IMG/VR virus record: IMGVR_UViG_2579778601_000008
Span: 1-34,844 of that record
Reading direction: 5' to 3' (one strand)
From: a virus
Taxonomy: Duplodnaviria; Heunggongvirae; Uroviricota; Caudoviricetes
DNA: 34,844 nucleotides
The translations under genes were made by a program, and so were the position numbers. Below are positions 6,913 to 32,242 of the stretch, piece by piece. The notes beneath the pieces were generated by a model. The model was not told the DNA's origin and searched no databases. It was given only the letters and a program-made list of their open reading frames with translations. Numbering within the stretch: the first letter of the stretch is position 1; each line of letters starts with the position of its first letter.

Positions 6913-7398
6913 ATGAGCTATGCAGCTAAAAAACTGCTTGACCGCTATTGGGATCGCCGACTACCTGTCGATCCGTTTAAGCTTGCTAAAGCGTGGGGTG
7001 CTCGTGTTGAAGCACTTGAGGAATCGGCTTATAACAACGATGGGTTAAGCGGTCTGGCTGTCATCAAAAAGGGTGTCCATAGGATTTATTTTGATTCTAG
7101 TGAACATTCTAATCGTCAACGTTTTACTGTTGCACACGAGTTAGGTCATCATGTGCTGGGGCATACCCAGGACGGAGAGTACCATCGGGATAATGTCGGG
7201 AATTATTCAACAGGTGCTCGTGATTACCGTGAGGTTGAAGCAAACAAGTTTGCTGCTGAGTTGTTAATGCCTGAGTCTGCTATACGTCAATTGGTATCCA
7301 GAGAAGGTATTGATAGCACTTTGAGATTAGCAAGCATCTTTAATGTATCAGAAGCCGCTATGCATTGGCGCTTAAAGAGCTTAGGAATGGCTTATTAA
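6913..7398 (+). CDS. ImmA/IrrE-family (DUF955-like) zinc metallopeptidase, no attached HTH domain
   Basis: 161-aa ORF with HEXXH motif in ...FTVAHELGHHVLGH...; AGGAGG 6 nt upstream of the ATG; AT-rich upstream region with TTGACA at 6848. Confidence 0.75.
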   Translation: MSYAAKKLLDRYWDRRLPVDPFKLAKAWGARVEALEESAYNNDGLSGLAVIKKGVHRIYFDSSEHSNRQRFTVAHELGHHVLGHTQDGEYHRDNVGNYSTGARDYREVEANKFAAELLMPESAIRQLVSREGIDSTLRLASIFNVSEAAMHWRLKSLGMAY

Positions 7399-7425
7399 TT
7401 AGCCTTTAACTTTTAACCTGTTTAA

Positions 7426-7462
7426 AATCACCTTTACGTTTGTACATGTAAGGGTGATTTTT
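7426..7462 (+). terminator. Hairpin plus T-tract between the peptidase and membrane-protein genes (possible attenuator or partial terminator)
   Basis: Inverted repeat AAATCACCTTT...AAGGGTGATTT followed by TTTTTT running into the ATG at 7465. Confidence 0.4.
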
Positions 7463-7464
7463 TT

Positions 7465-8064
7465 ATGGCTGATATTGATTTATCTGGACAGTCCCCAGAG
7501 CAAGGAACCACTCCTAAGGGCGATTCAGATCCTGATATCCTTATAAGGCGAGATAGACGGGATGGTATAGAGCGTAGAAGTATGCGATTAGTGCTCTCTG
7601 CCGTTGTGCTTTGTTTTGCTTGTACATTTCTATGGCAGGGGCTTAACTTTGCTTTGGCTGTTGGAAATGGCTTGCTGGAAGCGAAAAGCAGTATTGCCGC
7701 AGCGATAACACAAAAAGTAGATACACAAACTTGTGTTTCAGCAGAAAAATGTTCTGCTTTATCTTCGGATCCGAAGATGGCTGATGAGAGGATAACACCA
7801 TCTTCAGACACTAATAAAGTTAGAAAATCTATTTCTGGTTTATCCACCGATTGGTTATCGGCCAGTTCTCTAATAGCTATTGTTGCATTCATCCTTGGTG
7901 TGGGTTTAACTTTGCTTTTGACTCTTCTTAAATCAGCATTTCAACACCCGACAGATAAAGACTTTAGAACAAAGTCGACATCTAATACTATTGAGTTGGC
8001 CACGCCAATCAGTGAATTAATAATTGGTGTTCTGAATATAATTAAAGACAAACTATCTAAGTAA
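7465..8064 (+). CDS. Predicted two-TM membrane protein of unknown function
   Basis: 199-aa ORF; charged N-terminus (RRDRRDGIERR); hydrophobic segments LVLSAVVLCFACTFLWQGLNFALAV and SLIAIVAFILGVGLTLLLTLL; two Cys in the intervening loop; amphipathic C-terminus; co-oriented with the peptidase gene. Confidence 0.6.
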   Translation: MADIDLSGQSPEQGTTPKGDSDPDILIRRDRRDGIERRSMRLVLSAVVLCFACTFLWQGLNFALAVGNGLLEAKSSIAAAITQKVDTQTCVSAEKCSALSSDPKMADERITPSSDTNKVRKSISGLSTDWLSASSLIAIVAFILGVGLTLLLTLLKSAFQHPTDKDFRTKSTSNTIELATPISELIIGVLNIIKDKLSK

Positions 8065-8146
8065 AGCATTAGTTGTGATTTTTTATTGGTTTTAGTGATA
8101 ATACATCTCCAGTACTTATTGTTACTGGAGAGTATTTTTAGTCGTT

Positions 8147-9088
8147 TTATATTTTTAATGTTAGTGAATGATATTCACGAGAGTTCACGTTCGATGTGAT
8201 GTAATCGGGGGCGTTAACACCAAGAATCGCAACGAGTAATCGGCAAATTAAAGCCTGCATTTGTTGTAATATGTCATCTCCATATTGATAATTGTTAATA
8301 GTGGTAAAGCCAAGTGGTTGACCATGAAACATAGCTTCATGAAAGTTTTCATTGCGGATGTTTGTAATGTTTTTTTTGCCTGTAACCCATGATGGTCGTG
8401 GTATTCCATAAGTTTTGCAGATCCACTTCAAGCGCCTGGAGTGATTTAGAGTCTTTTCTGTACACTTGTTCTTTTCTGCCCATGTTAAAGCAAAGCAACT
8501 ATCCAGTGCCATATAAAGATACTGGAATTTTTCGAAGCTAAGGTATTGTGGGTTTTGGGATAAAAATAGTGCATGCACTATTGCTGCTATATTTATTGGT
8601 GCGTGTTTGGTTTTTGTCTCGCTAGACATGTATTTGAGTGCTAATTCTATAACCTCTTTTTCAGAGCACTTGACCAGAATAAAGTCAGTTAATTTGCTGG
8701 GTTTTATTGGGGTTGCGTCTAAAAAACCGGCATCAGTAGTTGTTAATCTTATCCCTTTGAAAAAAGACAGACACCACACAGCAAAATTGAGAGTTTCTAG
8801 TGAAGATGTATTTTTTAATTTTAGTGAGTGTGTTTTGGGTAAGCCAAATACTCGTTGGCTAAAAGGCATTGTGGATATGCCTCCATTGAGGTTATATACT
8901 TCTTGGTTTCCTGGGTATATCCAACCGTTAATAACATTTCTGTGATTGTTTATAAGATTTGTTTTTTCCGCTAGACCGGGTAAAGTAAGTAAAGAAAAAT
9001 CATCAGTTTCAACGTTAACTTCTACTGGATAGTATCCAAACTCAGCTTCAATATCATTGGATTGCTGTTCGTCAACTTTACCTTGCAT
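8147..9088 (-). CDS. Hypothetical 313-aa protein with RNxxxH motif (possible HEPN-type nuclease)
   Basis: Long ORF in a markedly AT-rich stretch, convergent with the two upstream genes; GGAG 6 nt upstream of ATG; motif RNENFH near residue 245; no P-loop or HEXXH seen. Confidence 0.65.
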   Translation of the reverse strand: MQGKVDEQQSNDIEAEFGYYPVEVNVETDDFSLLTLPGLAEKTNLINNHRNVINGWIYPGNQEVYNLNGGISTMPFSQRVFGLPKTHSLKLKNTSSLETLNFAVWCLSFFKGIRLTTTDAGFLDATPIKPSKLTDFILVKCSEKEVIELALKYMSSETKTKHAPINIAAIVHALFLSQNPQYLSFEKFQYLYMALDSCFALTWAEKNKCTEKTLNHSRRLKWICKTYGIPRPSWVTGKKNITNIRNENFHEAMFHGQPLGFTTINNYQYGDDILQQMQALICRLLVAILGVNAPDYITSNVNSREYHSLTLKI

Positions 9089-21187: not shown

Positions 21188-23806
21188 ATGAGCACGAAAT
21201 TTAAAACCGTTATCACTACTGCCGGAGCCGCGAAGCTGGCAGCCGCTACTGTTCCCGGCGGGAAAAAAGTAAACCTGTCTGCAATGGCTGTGGGTGACGG
21301 TAATGGCCAATTGCCGGTGCCGGATGCCGGTCAGACGAAACTGGTGCATGAAGTCTGGCGTCACGCTCTGAATAAAGTCAGTGTGGATAACAAGAATAAA
21401 AACTATATCGTGGCTGAACTGGTTGTTCCGCCAGAAGTGGGCGGCTTCTGGATGCGTGAGCTTGGTCTGTATGATGATGCCGGAACACTGATTGCGGTAT
21501 CCAACATGGCAGAAAGCTATAAGCCAGAACTGGCTGAAGGCTCCGGACGTGCGCAGACCTGCCGCATGGTTATTATTCTCAGTAACGTGGCGTCCGTTGA
21601 GCTGAGTATTGATGCCAGCACAGTGATGGCGACGCAGGATTACGTCGATGACAAAATCGCAGAGCATGAGCAGTCCCGCCGCCATCCTGACGCCACACTG
21701 ACAGAAAAAGGTTTTACTCAGTTAAGCAGTGCAACAAACAGCACCAGTGAGTCATTGGCGGCAACGCCAAAAGCGGTCAAGGCAGCAAATGACAACGCAA
21801 ATTCACGTCTGGCGAAAAATCAGAATGGTGCAGATATCCAGAATAAATCAGCTTTTCTGGAAAATGTTGGCGTTACCAGCCTGACGTTTATGAAAAACAA
21901 TGGCGAAATGCCGCTTGATGCTGATCTGAATACATTTGGTCCTGTTAAGGCTTATTCAGGTATCTGGTCTAAAGCAACATCCACCAACGCAACACTGGAG
22001 AAAAATTTCCCTGAAGACGGTGCAGTCGGTGTGCTTGAGGTATTCAATGGCGGTAATTTTGCAGGAATGCAGCGTTATACCACCAGAACAGGCAATGTTT
22101 ATATGCGCAACCTTTCTGGCACCTGGAATGGCTCAGACGGTCCGTGGAGCTACTGGCGTCAGATTCAGTCAGCAACACGCCCCCTGAGTACAACCATTGA
22201 CCTGAACACGCTCGGAGGCGCAGAGCATCTTGGCTTATGGCGAAACAGTAGTGGCTCTATCGCTTCATTTGACCGCAACTATCCGGAAGAAGGAAGTTAT
22301 GGTCAGGGACTCCTTGAAGTTCTTGAAGGTGGTGGGTACTCACGCATGCAACGCTACACGACCCGCCGTGGGGATGTATATGTTCGCTGCCTTTCTGCTA
22401 CATGGAATGCAGAGAATCCACAGTGGGAACCGTGGTTAAGAGTCGGTCATCAGTCAGAGAGTCGTTATTACGACGGGGATTTGAATGATGTGACTTCACC
22501 AGGTATTTACAGCGTTACAGGTAAAGCGACCAACGGTCCAATACTGGACGGAAACGGCGTGACAGTCCTCGGGATTCTGGAAGTGTTGAGGCGCTTTGAT
22601 GGTGTTAACGTATGGCAGCGTTATACAACTGCCGGAACAGGTGCAACCCTTAAAGGTCGCACGTTTGAGCGCGTCTATACCGGCAGCTCGTGGAGCGAAT
22701 GGCGGGAAGTCTACACCTCGTATTCACTTCCCCTGAATCTGGGTATCGGCGGTGCTGTGGCAAAGCTCACCAGCATGGACTGGCAGACCTACGACTTTGT
22801 GCCGGGCAGTCTGATAACCGTTCGGCTTGATAACATGACCAACATTCCCGACGGTATGGACTGGGGCGTCATTGATGGCAACCTGATAAACATCGCAGTG
22901 GGTCCGAGTGATGATTCCGGTACGGGGCGCTCAATGCATGTATGGCGCAGCACCGTAAGTAAAGCGAACTACCGCTTTTTTATGGTGCGTATTTCAGGAA
23001 ATCCGGGAAGTCGCACGATCACCACAAGACGTGTGCCAATCATTGACGAAGCCCAGACATGGGCGGCGAAACAAACCTTCAGCGCCGGTCTTTCAGGCGA
23101 ACTGTCCGGCAATGCTGCTACAGCAACAAAGCTGAAAACGGCAAGGACAATTAACGGCGTAAAATTTGACGGCTCGGCAAATATTGAAGCGTTTCCGCCA
23201 GGTGTTCCGCTGCCGTGGCCATCAGATACACCACCTGCAGGCTATGCAATTATGCAGGGGCAGACGTTTGATAAGGCTGCATATCCGAAACTGGCTATTG
23301 CCTATCCTTCTGGTGTTATTCCAGATATGCGCGGCTGGACAATCAAGGGCAAACCCGCCAGTGGGCGTGCCGTATTGTCACAGGAACAGGACGGGATTAA
23401 ATCGCATACTCACAGCGCCAGTGCGTCAAATACGGATTTAGGGACGAAAACGACCAGTTCATTTGATTACGGCACGAAGACAGTCAGTACGTTTAACTAC
23501 GGAACAAAAACCACTAATACCACAGGTAACCATACACATACCATTTACAGAGGGAATGCCAATACTAATGGTGAAACCGGTAAAACAGGCTTTGACAACC
23601 CATCGTTTAATGGCACATCAGGAGCTGCCGGGAATCATGCCCACACGGTAGATATTGGCGCACATAATCATACGGTTGGTATTGGTGCACATTCACACAC
23701 GGTTGCTATTGGCTCACACGGGCACTCTATTACCGTTAATGCTACAGGTAATACCGAAAACACCGTCAAAAACATCGCATTTAACTATATTGTGAGGCTT
23801 GCATAA
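21188..23806 (+). CDS. H: Tail fibre protein H (conserved N-terminus, divergent extended distal part)
   Basis: 872-aa ORF; N-terminus [25 protein letters not shown]... is P2 gpH-like; three tandem ~85-aa repeats in the middle; His-rich GxHxH repeats near the C-terminus. Confidence 0.9.
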
Positions 23807-24384
23807 TGGCTTTCAGAATGAGTGCAGAAGCACAAACTATCCACGTATTTAATTTACTTGATGGAACCAATGAATTTATTGGGGAAAGTGACGCATATAT
23901 CCCACCGTACACTGGCCTGCCTGCAAACAGTACAGATATTGCACCACCTGATATTCCAGCTGGTTATGCAGCCGTTTTCAATGCAGACGAAATGAAATGG
24001 GAACTGATGGAAGACCATCGCGGAAAGACTGTCTACGAAACGAAAACGGGAGCAGCCATTTATATTTCTGAACTTGGCGTATTACCTCCAGACGTGACAG
24101 CCATTTCCCCGGATGGGGATTATCAGAAATGGAACGGCAATGCGTGGGTGAATGATGAGAATGCAGAGCGTGATGCGCTTGTCAGAGCGGCGGAGTCTCA
24201 GAAGAAAGAGCAGATTGCATATGCAGGTGAAATCATTGCCACGCTGCAGGATGCTGTCGATTTAGATATGGCTACCGAGGAAGAAAAGTTAAGTCTGACA
24301 CACTGGAAAAAATACCGTGTGTTACTGAATCGCGTTCAGCCGGAAAATGCCCCGGATATTGAATGGCCGGAACTACCGCAATAA
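23806..24384 (+). CDS. G: Tail fibre assembly chaperone (Tfa-like)
   Basis: 192-aa ORF starting at the H stop; resembles Tfa-family tail fibre assembly proteins. Confidence 0.85.
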
Positions 24385-26238: not shown

Positions 26239-26294
26239 TTTTCATCCGGTCAGCCTGGCTGACCGGTTAACCCTGATTCAGAAGTGAGAAAACC

Positions 26295-26570
26295 ATGAAC
26301 AAAGAAAATGTGATTACCCTGGACAATCCGGTCAAGCGTGGTGAGCAGGTTATCAAACAGGTCACGCTGATGAAACCTAATGCCGGGACGCTTCGCGGTG
26401 TCAGTCTGGCTTCGGTCGCACACTCCGAAGTCGATGCACTTATTAAGGTGCTGCCGCGCATGACGGCACCGATGCTGACCGAGCAGGAAGTCGCCGCGCT
26501 GGAACTGCCTGACCTTGTGGAACTGGCCGGTAAGGTGGTCGGTTTTTTGTCGCCGAACTCGGTGCAGTGA
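26295..26570 (+). CDS. E: Tail assembly chaperone E
   Basis: 91-aa ORF upstream of T; contains the T6G slippery site near its 3' end. Confidence 0.85.
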   Translation: MNKENVITLDNPVKRGEQVIKQVTLMKPNAGTLRGVSLASVAHSEVDALIKVLPRMTAPMLTEQEVAALELPDLVELAGKVVGFLSPNSVQ

Positions 26571-26722
26571 CGTTTCCGAAAAATCTGTCGGTAGATGACC
26601 TGATGGCGGATGTGGCAGTGATATTTCACTGGCCGCCATCAGAACTGTATCCCATGAGCCTGACCGAACTCATCACATGGCGCGAAAAGGCGCTCCAGCG
26701 AAGCGGAAACACGAATGAGTAA
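26295..26722 (+). CDS. Tail assembly chaperone E+E' made by programmed -1 frameshift
   Basis: Slippery sequence GGTTTTTTG at 26541-26549; I traced the -1 frame by hand from there to a TAA at 26720-26722, encoding ...HWPPSELYPMSLTELITWREKALQRSGNTNE. Confidence 0.7.
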
Positions 26723-26797
26723 CAATGTAAAATTACAGGTATTGCTCAGGGCTGTTGACCAGGCATCCCGCCCGTTTAAATCCATCCGCACAGCGAG
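26715..26797 (+). pseudogene. T: Tape measure protein T, N-terminal fragment (cut by IS insertion)
   Basis: ATG at 26715 encodes MSNNVKLQVLLRAVDQASRPFKSIRTAS, then the frame runs into the IS terminal repeat. Confidence 0.8.
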
Positions 26798-26882
26798 TGC
26801 GTATTACCGTGAAGGAGATCGGTGAGTAACATCGATGGAGATCGGTTCGTGTCACTTTCACAGAACCGTTTTTAAATTACCT

Positions 26883-27632
26883 TCACTGATCTCCTTCGGT
26901 CAACGGAGATTGTATTTTCCGCATTGATTCTCCTTTAAGTTCGATCTTGATACTGCCATGAACCAGTCGATCTAGGATGGCATCCGCATGTGTGGAGTCT
27001 CCGATCATTTTGTACCAGTTTTCCACCGGCAACTGGCTCACTACGATGATTGAGCCTCGTTGGTACATCAGATCCACTATTTCCAGCAGGTCGCTACGCT
27101 GTTCTGATGAGAGAGGTTCCAGCCCCCAGTCATCCAGAAGCAGCAGATCGCTATTATTCAGCCTGGTCAAAAGTTTGCTGTATCTTCCATCAGCATGCCC
27201 CTGATAGCACTGTTCCATCAGCGCTTTAAGGCGATAATAGTAGACCTTGTATCCCTGTCGGCAGGCATTATGACCAAGTGCACATGCCAGGAACGTTTTA
27301 CCGCTGCCGGTGGCCCCGGTCAGTAAAATATTTTGTTTCAGGGTTAACCAGTTTCCCTGACTGAGTGAACGGATGAGGGCCCTGTCCAGCCCTCTATTGT
27401 TACGATAATCCAGCTTTGATAACTCAGCATTAAGTCTGAACCGTGCATGTTTGATCAGACGCTCTGCCTTCCTGTTTTCACGGCAGGTTAGTTCTTCTGC
27501 TGTCAGTAATGACAGGCGTTCTTCGAAGCCCAGCTCCTGGTATGTGCCCGGTTGAGCAAGTTGCTTTTTAAGCGCATCACGGAAGCCGGTGAGTTTAAGT
27601 GCGGTCAGTTGTTCGTAAAGATGATTCATCAT
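26883..27632 (-). CDS. istB: IS21-family helper ATPase IstB
   Basis: 249-aa ORF with Walker A (GATGSGKT) and Walker B (LLLLDDWG) motifs, typical of IstB. Confidence 0.9.
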   Translation of the reverse strand: MMNHLYEQLTALKLTGFRDALKKQLAQPGTYQELGFEERLSLLTAEELTCRENRKAERLIKHARFRLNAELSKLDYRNNRGLDRALIRSLSQGNWLTLKQNILLTGATGSGKTFLACALGHNACRQGYKVYYYRLKALMEQCYQGHADGRYSKLLTRLNNSDLLLLDDWGLEPLSSEQRSDLLEIVDLMYQRGSIIVVSQLPVENWYKMIGDSTHADAILDRLVHGSIKIELKGESMRKIQSPLTEGDQ

Positions 27633-27643
27633 TGGATCCCGTA

Positions 27644-29185
27644 TCAGTGGTAATACTCACTGCCGCGTACGTTTTCGTGTTCCATCGTGGATAACAGATC
27701 TGGTTTTGGATCCTGAACAGGTTGTTTATCCAGACCTTTTTCCAGGATCGATTTAATACCTGACAGACGCCATACCTTTGTTTTCAGAGCTCTTGCACAT
27801 GCTGCATTAAGTCTGGCTTTACTGTATTTTTTATGAAGGTTCAGGAGTCCAAGGCAGAAGCGATAGCTTTGTTCCGGATGTGGACGAGAGTTCAGTATAT
27901 GAAGCACATAACTATGAGTTTCACTGCCTATGTGCCCCGCCCATTCCAGAAGACGCTCTGGCGTCCAGGTGGCATGCTGTCGATGAGCTTCAGGCATGTG
28001 CTCGTTGCGGGTACTGTAGCCATAAGTACGCTTGCGCGGGTGCACAGCAACCTCCTGCCCCTGATTGAAGAGTCTTACCAGTTCTCCGGAGATCCATGCT
28101 TCCAGTTGCTGGCCTAACAGCGAACATGGAACCGAGTAGTAATGTTTGTCGATTTCCACGTGGTAATCGGCATGAACTCTGACTTTCTTCACCAGGGTGT
28201 AACTGTAACTGGCTTCAGGAAGAGGCTTCAGTGCGGGTTTATCAAGCTGGATGAAGAGTTCTGCACGTGAATAACCCAACTTCTGCATTATTTTGTTATT
28301 CAGTCTTTCCAGCAACTCCCGAATGCGCTGATTAAGCGATGCAAGGCTGTAGAAGATCTCATGCCTGATTCGGGCCATGATCCAGCGTTCAACAACCTGA
28401 ACGCCAACTTCAGCTTTGGCTTTATCTTTCGGTTTACGTGGCCGCGCAGGCAAAACTGCGACATTATAATGCTCAAGCATCTGCTGGTAGGTAGGGTTAA
28501 CGTCAGGATCATACTTACATGCCCTGGATGTGGCGCTTTTCAGATTGTCCGGAACAACAAGTTCAGGAACGCCACCCAACCACTGGAAGCAGCGAACATG
28601 ACTCATCACCCAGTCTTCAAGCTGCTGAGACCAGGTGGCCTCTGCCCATGTGTAACTTGATGCCCCGAGAACAGCTACGATGACCTGAGCAGTTCTTATT
28701 TCTCCGGTCTCAGGGTCGGTAACGCCAACGGTAGGTCCACAGTAATCAACGAAAAGTTTTTCGCCAGCTTTATGTACCTGACGCATTGATGGTGAAGTGG
28801 TTTTGAGCCATTCACGGTACATCCGGCAGTAATGGTTATAGCTGTAAAAACCGCCTGGATTACGCTCACAGTATTCTTCCCAGAGTAGCTGCAGCGTCAC
28901 GCATTTATTACGCAGTTCCCGGTGTACTGTAGCCCAGTCAGGCAGAGAGTGCTTCTTCATCTTAACCTGGGTCTGAAGGAACGCATGTTTTAGTTTTGTA
29001 TCATCCCATCCTGTAGGTAAGGGCCACTGCTTTATGCCAAGTTGAGCCGCCCGATTAGCATATCTGGATACAACGGAAGGGGAGATTGCAAGACTACGAC
29101 CAATTTGTCGATGGCTGAGTCCAACACCGTATTTAAGCCTAAGAATTTCTTTAAGTTTTCTCATAGAAATTGGAACTGTTGGCAT
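27644..29185 (-). CDS. istA: IS21-family transposase IstA
   Basis: 513-aa ORF with an N-terminal HTH and DDE-type integrase core, immediately upstream of istB. Confidence 0.9.
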   Translation of the reverse strand: MPTVPISMRKLKEILRLKYGVGLSHRQIGRSLAISPSVVSRYANRAAQLGIKQWPLPTGWDDTKLKHAFLQTQVKMKKHSLPDWATVHRELRNKCVTLQLLWEEYCERNPGGFYSYNHYCRMYREWLKTTSPSMRQVHKAGEKLFVDYCGPTVGVTDPETGEIRTAQVIVAVLGASSYTWAEATWSQQLEDWVMSHVRCFQWLGGVPELVVPDNLKSATSRACKYDPDVNPTYQQMLEHYNVAVLPARPRKPKDKAKAEVGVQVVERWIMARIRHEIFYSLASLNQRIRELLERLNNKIMQKLGYSRAELFIQLDKPALKPLPEASYSYTLVKKVRVHADYHVEIDKHYYSVPCSLLGQQLEAWISGELVRLFNQGQEVAVHPRKRTYGYSTRNEHMPEAHRQHATWTPERLLEWAGHIGSETHSYVLHILNSRPHPEQSYRFCLGLLNLHKKYSKARLNAACARALKTKVWRLSGIKSILEKGLDKQPVQDPKPDLLSTMEHENVRGSEYYH

Positions 29186-29378
29186 AGGTATCCTTTACCG
29201 GAATGGCAAAAGATACAGATCAACACACCTGTGAAGTTCCAATAACATTGATGGAGATCACTGAATAACAAAATGAGTCAAAAGTGATCTCCATCGATGT
29301 TATTCAGCGATCTGTTCAAATGTTATTACCCGATCTCGATGGAAGTTATTGAGTGATCTCCTTTCATGAAAATACGCA

Positions 29379-31748
29379 GCGAGTAAGTCGCTGTCGGGGG
29401 ATATCCGGGAAACACAAAAATCACTGCGCGAGCTGAATGGTCACGCATCCCGTATTGAGGGATTTCGCAAGACTAGCGCACAGCTTGCCGTGACTGGTCA
29501 TGCACTTGAAAAGGCACGGCAGGAAGCCGAAGCCCTTGCCACACAGTTTAAAAACACCGAACGTCCGACCCGTGCTCAGGCGAAAGTGCTGGAATCCGCA
29601 AAGCGTGCGGCGGAGGACTTACAGGCGAAATATAACCGCCTGACGGATTCCGTTAAACGCCAGCAGCGGGAACTGGCCGTTGTGGGAATTAATACCCGCA
29701 ATCTTGCACATGATGAGCAGGGACTGAAAAACCGTATCAGTGAAACCACCGCACAGCTTAACCGTCAGCGCGACGCGCTGGCGCGTGTCAGTGCGCAACA
29801 GGCAAAACTTAACGCAGTAAAACAGCGTTATCAGGCCGGAAAGGAACTGGCCGGAAATATGGCCTCAGTGGGCGCTGCCGGTGTGGGGATTGCTGCTGCG
29901 GGAACGATGGCCGGAGTTAAGCTGCTGATGCCCGGTTATGAGTTTGCGCAGAAAAACTCAGCATTGCAGGCCGTGCTCGGAGTGGCAAAAGACTCCGCCG
30001 AAATGACCGCACTCCGCAAACAGGCGCGCCAGCTCGGCGACAATACCGCAGCCTCGGCGGATGATGCAGCCGGTGCACAGATTATCATTGCGAAAGCCGG
30101 TGGGGATGCTGCGGCTATTCAGGCGGCAACGCCGGTCACACTGAATATGGCACTGGCAAACCAGCGGTCGATGGAAGAAAACGCGCAACTGTTGCTGGGG
30201 ACTAAGGCATCCTTTCAACTGTCAAATGATGATGTCAGCCATGTGGGCGACGTGTTGTCGGCAACGATGAATAAGTCGGCGGCTGATTTTCAGGGACTCA
30301 GTGATGCACTGACTTACCTCGGTCCGGTTGCGAGGACGGCAGGTGTAAGTCTTGAACAGGCAGCGGCCATGACAGGTGTGCTGCATGACAATAACATCAG
30401 GGGGTCAATGGCGGGTACGGGTGGCAGTGCCGTTGTCACCCGATTACAGGCACCGACTGGAAAAGCATGGGATGCACTCAAAGAGCTTGGCGTTAAAACC
30501 TCGGACAAAAAGGGAAATATGCGTCCGTTGTTCACCATTCTGAAAGAGATTCAGGCCAGCTTTGATAAACACAAGCTGGGAACGTCTCAGAAGGGGGAAT
30601 ACCTTAAAACCATTTTTGGTGAGGAAGCCCTGAAATCAGCGAACGTTTTACTGGCAGCGGCAGCAAGCGGAAAACTGGATAAGCTGACCGCCACGCTGAA
30701 AGCCTCGGACGGTAAAACGGAAGAGCTGGTTAAAATCATGCAGGATAACCTCGGTGGTGACTTTAAGGAGTTTCAGTCCGCTTATGAGGCGGTGGGGACT
30801 GACCTGTTTGACCAGCAGGAAGGCACACTGCGTAAGCTCACGCAGACGGCCACAAAGTATGTGTTAAAACTCGACGGCTGGATCCAGAAAAACAAATCAC
30901 TGGCGTCAACCATCGGCATCATTGCCGGTGGCGCGCTGGCGCTGATTGGCATCATCGGTGCAATTGGTCTTGTAGCCTGGCCGGTTATCACCGGCATCAA
31001 TGCCATCATCGCGGCAGCAGGCGCAATGGGGGCAATCTTCACGACGGTTGGCAGTGCTGTTATGACCGCCATCGGGGCTATTAGCTGGCCGGTTGTGGCC
31101 GTGGTGGCTGCCATTGTCGCCGGGGCGTTGCTTATCCGTAAATACTGGGAGCCTGTCAGCGCATTCTTTGGCGGTGTGGTTGAAGGGCTGAAAGCGGCAT
31201 TTGCGCCGGTGGGGGAACTGTTCACGCCACTGAAGCCGGTGTTTGACTGGCTGGGCGAAAAGTTACAGGCCGCGTGGCAGTGGTTTAAAAACCTGATTGC
31301 CCCGGTCAAAGCCACCCAGGACACCCTGAACCGTTGCCGTGACACGGGCGTCATGTTCGGGCAGGCACTGGCTGACGCGTTGATGCTGCCGCTTAATGCG
31401 TTCAACAAACTGCGCAGTGGTATTGACTGGGTACTGGAAAAACTCGGTGTTATCAACAAAGAGTCAGACACACTTGACCAGACCGCCGCCAGAACTCATG
31501 CCGCCACGTATGGTACCGGTGACTATATTCCGGCGACCAGCTCTTATGCAGGCTATCAGGCTTATCAGCCGGTCACGGCACCGGCTGGCCGCTCTTATGT
31601 AGACCAGAGTAAAAACGAATATCACATCAGCCTGACGGGTGGTACTGCGCCGGGGACACAGCTTGACCGCCAGTTACAGGACGCGCTCGAAAAATACGAG
31701 CGGGATAAACGTGCGCGCGCCCGTGCCAGCATGATGCATGACGGTTAA
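29379..31748 (+). pseudogene. T: Tape measure protein T, C-terminal portion (frame open from the IS junction)
   Basis: The frame resumes right after the IS (...KSLSGDIRETQKSLRELNGHASRIEGFRKTSAQLAVTGHALEKARQ...) and continues ~790 codons with the hydrophobic segments typical of tape measure proteins. Confidence 0.85.
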
Positions 31749-31762
31749 GGAGGTGACGAAAA

Positions 31763-32242
31763 ATGATGCTCGCGTTAGGTATGTTTGTTTTTATGCGCCA
31801 GACGCTGCCACACCAGACCATGCAGCGTGAATCAGATTATCGCTGGCCGTCAAATTCCCGTATCGGTAAACGGGATGCCTACCAGTTTCTCGGTGTGGGT
31901 GAGGAAAACATGACGCTTGCCGGTGTGCTTTATCCCGAACTGACCGGCGGAAAGCTGACGATGACCACGCTCAGGCTGATGGCAGATGAAGGCCGGGCGT
32001 GGCCGTTGCTGGATGGCACCGGCATGATTTACGGCATGTATGTCATCAGCAAGGTGAGTGAAACAGGGAGTATTTTCTTTGCAGACGGCACACCCCGGAA
32101 AATTGATTTTACGCTGTCGCTCACCCGCGTTGATGAATCACTGGCCGCGCTTTATGGCGATATCGGTAAACAGGCGGAGTCGCTCATCGGTAAGGCCGGC
32201 AGTATGGCGACCAGATTCACGGGTATGACGGGGGCAGGATAA
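31763..32242 (+). CDS. U: Tail protein U
   Basis: 159-aa ORF at the P2 gpU position. Confidence 0.88.
   Translation: MMLALGMFVFMRQTLPHQTMQRESDYRWPSNSRIGKRDAYQFLGVGEENMTLAGVLYPELTGGKLTMTTLRLMADEGRAWPLLDGTGMIYGMYVISKVSETGSIFFADGTPRKIDFTLSLTRVDESLAALYGDIGKQAESLIGKAGSMATRFTGMTGAG

Follow-up and report, generated by a model that had tools for sequence, protein, structure and literature searches.

Two tandem knobs of ~83 aa each have been described in R-type pyocin fibres, where a five- or six-stranded antiparallel sheet is buried in the trimer interface and the loops lie outside (Buth et al., 2018; PMC6116203). The same study places knob or knob-like domains in pyocin fibres, AS12 gp42, Phi11 gp45, phage K gp144 and T4 gp34, and it proposes that Knob2 of the R-pyocin contacts LPS or helps to bind it. 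For P88, a P2-like phage, the fibre segment to which host range has been mapped is aa 716-746 (PMC5285337). According to a passage of PMC7460101 that cites Garcia et al. (2008), gpH of phage L-413C is mosaic and departs from the P2 type in its middle part.

Here we describe the tail fibre protein H encoded in a stretch of 34,844 nucleotides (hereafter the window), which is a P2-like prophage of Escherichia coli. The H gene matches a RefSeq CDS of E. coli strain 21964, WP_032221693.1 ("phage tail protein"), at 100% identity; in that strain the gene order is V-W-J-I-H-tfa-FI-FII and the host genes fieF and pfkA adjoin. The architecture, the domain family and the exact H protein are already present in public databases and the literature. 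We consider it highly probable that H carries three tandem pyocin-type knobs that act mainly as structural modules of the shaft, that they belong to an old and portable cassette, and that primary receptor recognition is the task of a tip resembling that of T4 gp37.

The H gene and its modules

H is read from a single ORF, and its modules succeed one another as follows (knob limits are HMM envelopes).

21188..23806, plus strand: tail fibre gene H, single ORF, 872 aa; a mosaic of P2-type, T-even gp37-type and T4 gp37-tip modules
21188..21640, plus strand: P2 gpH-type N-terminal baseplate-attachment domain (aa 1-151; Pfam PF12571 Phage_tail_fib, E 2.4e-57)
21695..21820, plus strand: phage tail fibre repeat of the Mu S kind (aa 170-211; Pfam PF03406, E 5.9e-21)
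21917..22174, plus strand: knob domain 1 (aa 244-329; AF2 pLDDT ~80-87)
22193..22453, plus strand: knob domain 2 (aa 336-422; 42% identity to knob 1, z=32.6)
22469..22723, plus strand: knob domain 3, the divergent copy (aa 428-512)
22733..23107, plus strand: post-knob domain, here called D4 (aa 516-640); conserved and by sequence no knob
23075..23206, plus strand: linker motif GNAATATKL, a module junction (aa 630-673)
23144..23803, plus strand: T4 gp37-type collar, HxH-repeat needle and tip (aa 653-872; PDB 2XGF, E 3e-76)
23806..24384, plus strand: tail fibre assembly chaperone of 192 aa (Pfam PF02413 Caudo_TAP, E 6.6e-40; RefSeq "tail fiber assembly protein")

H is a fibre of the P2 gpH type, as judged by its PF12571 N-terminus and by its place in a P2-like late operon, with gene I before it and the tail fibre assembly gene after it; its shaft and C-terminal tip are not those of P2. 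Residues 167-233 match the tail fibre S of Mu (PDB 5YVQ/8JU3; E 1e-16 to 1e-19). The C-terminal part has the collar, the HxH needle and the conserved C-terminus of a T4 gp37-type tip, and the Pfam Collar domain (PF07484) is found on aa 672-719 (E 2.2e-10).

The middle of the protein is poorly served by the domain libraries. Pfam has no domain in aa 212-671, NCBIfam added nothing to Pfam and has no model over the repeats, and PHROGs returned generic "tail fiber" families only, so that none of the three puts a named domain on aa 236-640. Over the repeat region there are no minus-strand ORFs of 80 aa or more, and Rfam and tRNA scans of the whole window gave no matches.

A 27-nt tandem DNA repeat (window 23642-23718; 2.9 copies, 78% matches) encodes HTVxIGAHxH units of the needle, the counterparts of the His-x-His motifs in T4 gp37. 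Those motifs are metal-binding in T4.

Three related segments in the centre of H

The centre of H holds three adjacent related segments (R1, R2 and R3), the third being much more diverged than the first two. The motif QRYTT recurs at aa 295, 388 and 477, with spacings of 93 and 89 aa. Self-BLAST of H returned the identity match only, and segment-wise Smith-Waterman comparison with shuffles was used instead. R1 and R2 score 199 (z=32.6) and R1 and R3 score 67 (z=7.0), values reached by none of 1000 shuffles in either case; R2 and R3 score 42 (z=2.7), and 21 of 1000 shuffles score as high. The third copy is tied to the others by profile comparison: hhalign of a profile of R3 orthologues with the R1+R2 profile gave a probability of 87% and P=4e-6 (P=1.3e-4 with smaller alignments).

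The limits of the units (aa 244-329, 336-422 and 428-512) come from an HMM built on all copies, with gaps of 6-7 aa between units. In alignment, R1 is 42% identical to R2 and 26-31% identical to R3. When orthologues of the units in L-413C gpH, in a T-even gp37 and in fragments from E. coli are aligned with them, the common pattern DLN..G(I/L)(W/Y)...P...G.LEV....QRYTT....R....W..W extends over the full units of ~85 aa. At the DNA level, a repeat search of the knob region found none except 15 nt encoding QRYTT. We rejected the idea of a fourth, cryptic knob at aa 516-640, since the HMM finds no match there, hhalign against the knob profiles gives P of 0.16-0.55, and AF2 pLDDT in that stretch is below 50.

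The initial annotation of the window had proposed three homologous domains of ~85 aa, arisen by duplication, behind a P2-like N-terminus, and on this point the shuffle and profile statistics (P=4e-6) bear it out. The three repeat strings that it quoted are all in the 872-aa translation. The span that it gave, 21939-22720 (aa 251-511), is correct to within ~8 residues at the start, where the HMM units begin at aa 244. The similarity extends across the whole ~85-aa unit, beyond the short motif.

The repeats as pyocin-type knobs

Homologues of the repeat block are named "pyocin knob domain-containing protein" by NCBI. Searched against PDB sequences, the repeat profile finds the R2 and R1 pyocin fibres (6CT8, 6CL6 and 6CL5) at the position of Knob2, with E of 1.8e-6 to 5.2e-6. 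Neither a search of PDB sequences with whole H nor one with a profile of R3 alone reached the pyocin fibres, the latter giving no meaningful match; the membership of R3 in the family comes through its link to the R1/R2 profile (P=4e-6).

Predicted structure is consistent with this assignment. In an AF2 model of the monomer (aa 232-657), pLDDT over the repeats is about 75-85 and each repeat consists of one short helix at DLN followed by five strands. Knob 2 has the same strand order as knob 1, and the predicted fold is the same in all three units, with the qualification that the alignment behind the R3 model also contained R1 and R2 sequences. The best PDB match of the model by Foldseek is the R1 pyocin fibre 6CL5 (E 6.6e-7). 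The units have the dimensions and predicted fold of knobs, that is, ~80-90 aa forming a five- or six-stranded antiparallel beta-sheet with loops, and they stand in tandem with short helix-plus-turn connectors, a short predicted helix at DLN starting each unit. From the NCBI names, the profile, the AF2 model and the Foldseek match together, we take the repeats of H to be three tandem knob domains.

By analogy with the pyocin structures, the knobs of H would pack as homotrimers. Each unit would then form a five-stranded antiparallel sheet round the three-fold axis with its loops pointing outward, and the three units would appear as three globular beads in mid-shaft, joined by short helix-plus-turn linkers at DLN. 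The greater variability of positions outside the predicted strands lends indirect support to such packing. The knobs probably serve mainly as structural and folding modules that determine how long and how stiff the fibre is. The collar, needle and tip at the C-terminus would carry out primary receptor recognition, the Tfa chaperone encoded downstream helping the tip to fold.

A mosaic fibre

P2 gpH (NP_046775.1, 669 aa) aligns to H over aa 1-207 only, with 83% identity. Since it has no knob and its similarity is confined to that N-terminal part, H is not P2 gpH with an insertion. The initial annotation had explained a surplus of about 200 aa over P2 gpH by the repeats; in fact everything downstream of aa 207 belongs to a different, mosaic fibre.

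The remainder of H has its relatives elsewhere. Residues 226-636, comprising the knobs and D4, are 55% identical to aa 105-517 of gp37 of T4_ev240, a record whose gp37 is of the non-T4 type. The knob block of 280 aa is present at full length, at 57-64% identity, in gp37 of ~200 Tequatrovirus-like genomes, including RB14, RB32 and PST. D4 likewise follows the knobs in the T-even-type gp37. The T4 protein itself was rejected as a source of the knob block: T4 gp37 matches the tip of H only (aa 636-872, 58% identical to T4 gp37 785-1026) and is without the knob triplet. In another direction, gpH of L-413C (NP_839867.1, 913 aa) aligns over its aa 1-675 with aa 1-673 of H at 74% identity.

The linker at aa 630-673 is likely a recombination junction between fibre modules. 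It matches aa 63-106 of the T-even-type gp37, which lie upstream of the knob block there. It also coincides with the point at which other Peduovirus H genes, 87-94% identical in their DNA until then, cease to resemble this one (nt 1952-1967 of the gene, aa ~655). A natural variant (P0014) lacks D4 and has knob 3 joined straight to the GNAATATKL linker.

The comparisons at sequence level argue that the three-knob cassette is old and moves as a unit. By recombination the three knobs plus D4 have come to stand in P2-type H fibres, in gp37 of many T-even phages and in long fibres whose N-termini are different.

Copy number of the knobs among relatives

Fifty-six related IMG/VR loci were compared. 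All 55 intact fibre ORFs have three copies, whatever their N-terminus or tip; the 56th is a truncated ORF of 233 aa. The block stands behind P2-type N-termini and also behind other, longer N-terminal parts, and it precedes at least three types of tip, namely that of H's own C-terminus, one ending ...YINGTWYNVAQV and one ending ...CINGTWYNAGSI. The variation in copy number that the initial annotation proposed to look for among related prophages was therefore not found in these 55 ORFs. Nor is the triplication particular to H: all of them have the same block, and so do L-413C gpH and the gp37 of many T-even phages.

Copy number varies on a wider view. A profile search of 1.84 billion cluster representatives found 2477 proteins at E <=0.001. 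Among the best 150 of the 2477, the number of matched stretches per protein was one in 4, two in 46, three in 57, four in 23, five in 10, six in 8 and seven in 2, and neighbouring copies in the library search were at most 25 aa apart in 169 of 288 pairs. Knob arrays of variable length are a general feature of fibre proteins, and the number is fixed at three in the close family of H. The knob block was found in 367 of 5426 complete genomes.

One library match of 1300 aa (P0038) has the triplet twice, at aa 216-482 and 720-984 with 238 aa between, and ends in another C-terminal domain (PF25670). It is a natural duplication of the whole knob block.

Chance resemblance and recent triplication

Two further readings of the repeats were weighed. 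One holds that the recurrence of LEV...QRYTT...W..W is a matter of chance or composition, with no homology of domains behind it. The silence of self-BLAST and the weakness of R2-R3 taken alone (z=2.7) lean that way. The z values of 32.6 and 7.0 for the other two pairs, the profile-profile P of 4e-6, the one fold predicted for all three units and the thousands of homologous domains in other fibre proteins make it scarcely conceivable, and we regard it as refuted by the repeat statistics, the shared predicted fold and the occurrence of such domains elsewhere.

The other reading, in which the fibre grew by ~200 aa when part of a P2-type H gene was recently triplicated, has in its favour the sizes of the two proteins (872 aa in H, 669 aa in P2 gpH) and the adjacency of the units. 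It is nevertheless very improbable, because a tandem repeat at the DNA level is absent, the copies are just 26-42% identical, and P2 gpH has no knob to multiply and aligns only to aa 1-207. The orthologous three copies in L-413C gpH, in T-even gp37 and in 55 of 55 intact IMG/VR ORFs are decisive: with each copy orthologous across distant phages, a recent triplication is refuted. From the lack of a DNA repeat, the low identity of the copies and the sharing of the same three copies across distant phages, it follows that the triplication is old.

Variation and host range

Among 29 distinct P2-like H proteins, the mean identity to H is 96% in the N-terminus, 84, 84 and 92% in the three knobs, 96% in D4 and 51% in the tip. 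Within the central fibre, D4 is thus the best-conserved part, although it belongs to no assigned family (its AF2 pLDDT is <50). The tip, besides having the lowest mean identity, is wholly replaced in many of the 29, and on these two grounds we regard it as the exchanged module. Both the paradigm of T4 gp37 and the mapping of host range in P88 accord with this. The C-terminal tip is probably the main determinant of host range in H.

Whether the knob triplet could itself be a receptor-recognition element has to be weighed against this. In variability the knobs rank second among the parts of H: their mean column entropy is 0.32, while that of the N-terminus is 0.08 and that of D4 0.15. Their variation is concentrated off the predicted strands (P=0.009), and divergent patches, such as aa 278-409 and 429-512, assort independently of one another and of tip type. 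All of this would suit recognition by the knobs, as would the binding role proposed for Knob2 of the pyocin (Buth et al., 2018; PMC6116203). The Nei-Gojobori method gave no sign of positive selection in the knobs, however: the divergent alleles have high dS as well as high dN, and dN/dS is 0.10-0.25, for which reason the patches look like old alleles recombined under purifying selection rather than the product of diversifying selection. Moreover, the same knob alleles are paired with unrelated tips, the block is kept at ~55-63% identity in T-even gp37, and the monomer models show no identifiable binding site. On balance, recognition of the receptor by the knobs appears unlikely.

A secondary role in binding is kept as a reading on account of the proposal for Knob2. 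The three knobs may form a tunable lateral array for glycans that gives secondary specificity, e.g., for the LPS core or the O-antigen type, and cooperates with the swappable tip, an idea that we put forward as a rather doubtful one. The specificity would be set by knob segments that recombine independently and have variable loops facing outward. If it held, knob alleles and tip would together form a combinatorial code for host range in P2-like and T-even fibres, and the patchwork alleles would be of some interest for predicting host range. The initial annotation had taken the repeats for a likely determinant of host range. A main role is not what we find, as the tip is what is exchanged among Peduovirus H genes that are otherwise ~90% identical; a contributory role is possible given the variability of the knobs.

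Other features of the prophage

An IS21-family element (RefSeq ISEc12 IstA/IstB) lies at window 26798-29376, inside the tape-measure gene T. It contains two genes.

26883..27632, minus strand: istB, in the IS21-family element
27644..29185, minus strand: istA, in the IS21-family element

The insertion is ~27 codons past the start of T and leaves gene fragments at 26715-26797 and 29377-31748. The E-T region of P2 aligns to two parts of the window, 26265-26797 and 29377-31851; these overlap by 7 bp in what resembles a target-site duplication. Tail assembly is probably defective in the prophage, and with an IS in the tape-measure gene the H fibre may be out of use at present.

Between the replication and portal genes, accessory or defence genes are often found in P2-like phages. 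Three non-P2 cargo ORFs are found in that interval here, at window 6913-9088.

6913-7398: cargo ORF, ImmA/IrrE-family metallopeptidase
7465-8064: cargo ORF, hypothetical protein
8147-9088, minus strand: cargo ORF, hypothetical protein of 313 aa

Significance and comparison with known systems

The value of the analysis lies mainly in annotation, as it maps every module of a prophage fibre that is very common in E. coli. It also corrects the reading of the repeats as a lineage-specific expansion or as the main determinant of host range. The map marks the natural recombination junctions, one after aa ~207-235 and one at the GNAATATKL linker (aa ~640-670), which are possible splice points for engineered phages or retargeted pyocins.

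The knobs of the R1 and R2 pyocins (Knob1 and Knob2; PDB 6CL5, 6CL6 and 6CU2) are two in number, whereas H has three. What follows the knobs also differs, being an iron-containing shaft and a lectin-like foot in the pyocins, and D4 and a T4 gp37-type needle in H. The setting is likewise distinct: the pyocins are R-pyocins of P. aeruginosa, and H is the fibre of a P2-like prophage of E. coli.

P2 gpH occupies the same genomic position as H, between I and the tail fibre assembly gene. Past aa 207 of H it has no similarity and no knobs, its shaft and tip being different. The non-T4 T-even gp37 proteins (RB14, RB32, PST and T4_ev240) have the same block of three knobs and D4. Their N-terminus is of a different, gp36-binding kind, and their C-terminal parts are long and unlike that of H. 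The GNxxTATKL linker, which comes before the knob block in these proteins, comes after D4 in H.

The tip of H (aa 653-872) aligns with that of T4 gp37 (2XGF) in its collar, its HxH needle repeats and its C-terminus. Its centre, at about aa 756-830, is divergent from T4 gp37, and the receptor of T4 (OmpC or LPS) need not therefore be that of H.

The gpH of the Yersinia phage L-413C shares the P2-like gene order and the three orthologous knobs, with QRYTT at 295, 388 and 477 as in H. Knobs 1 and 3 of the two proteins are just 45-48% identical, and the tips are of different kinds: that of L-413C is P2-type (...YINGTWYNVAQV), and that of H is of the T4 gp37 type.
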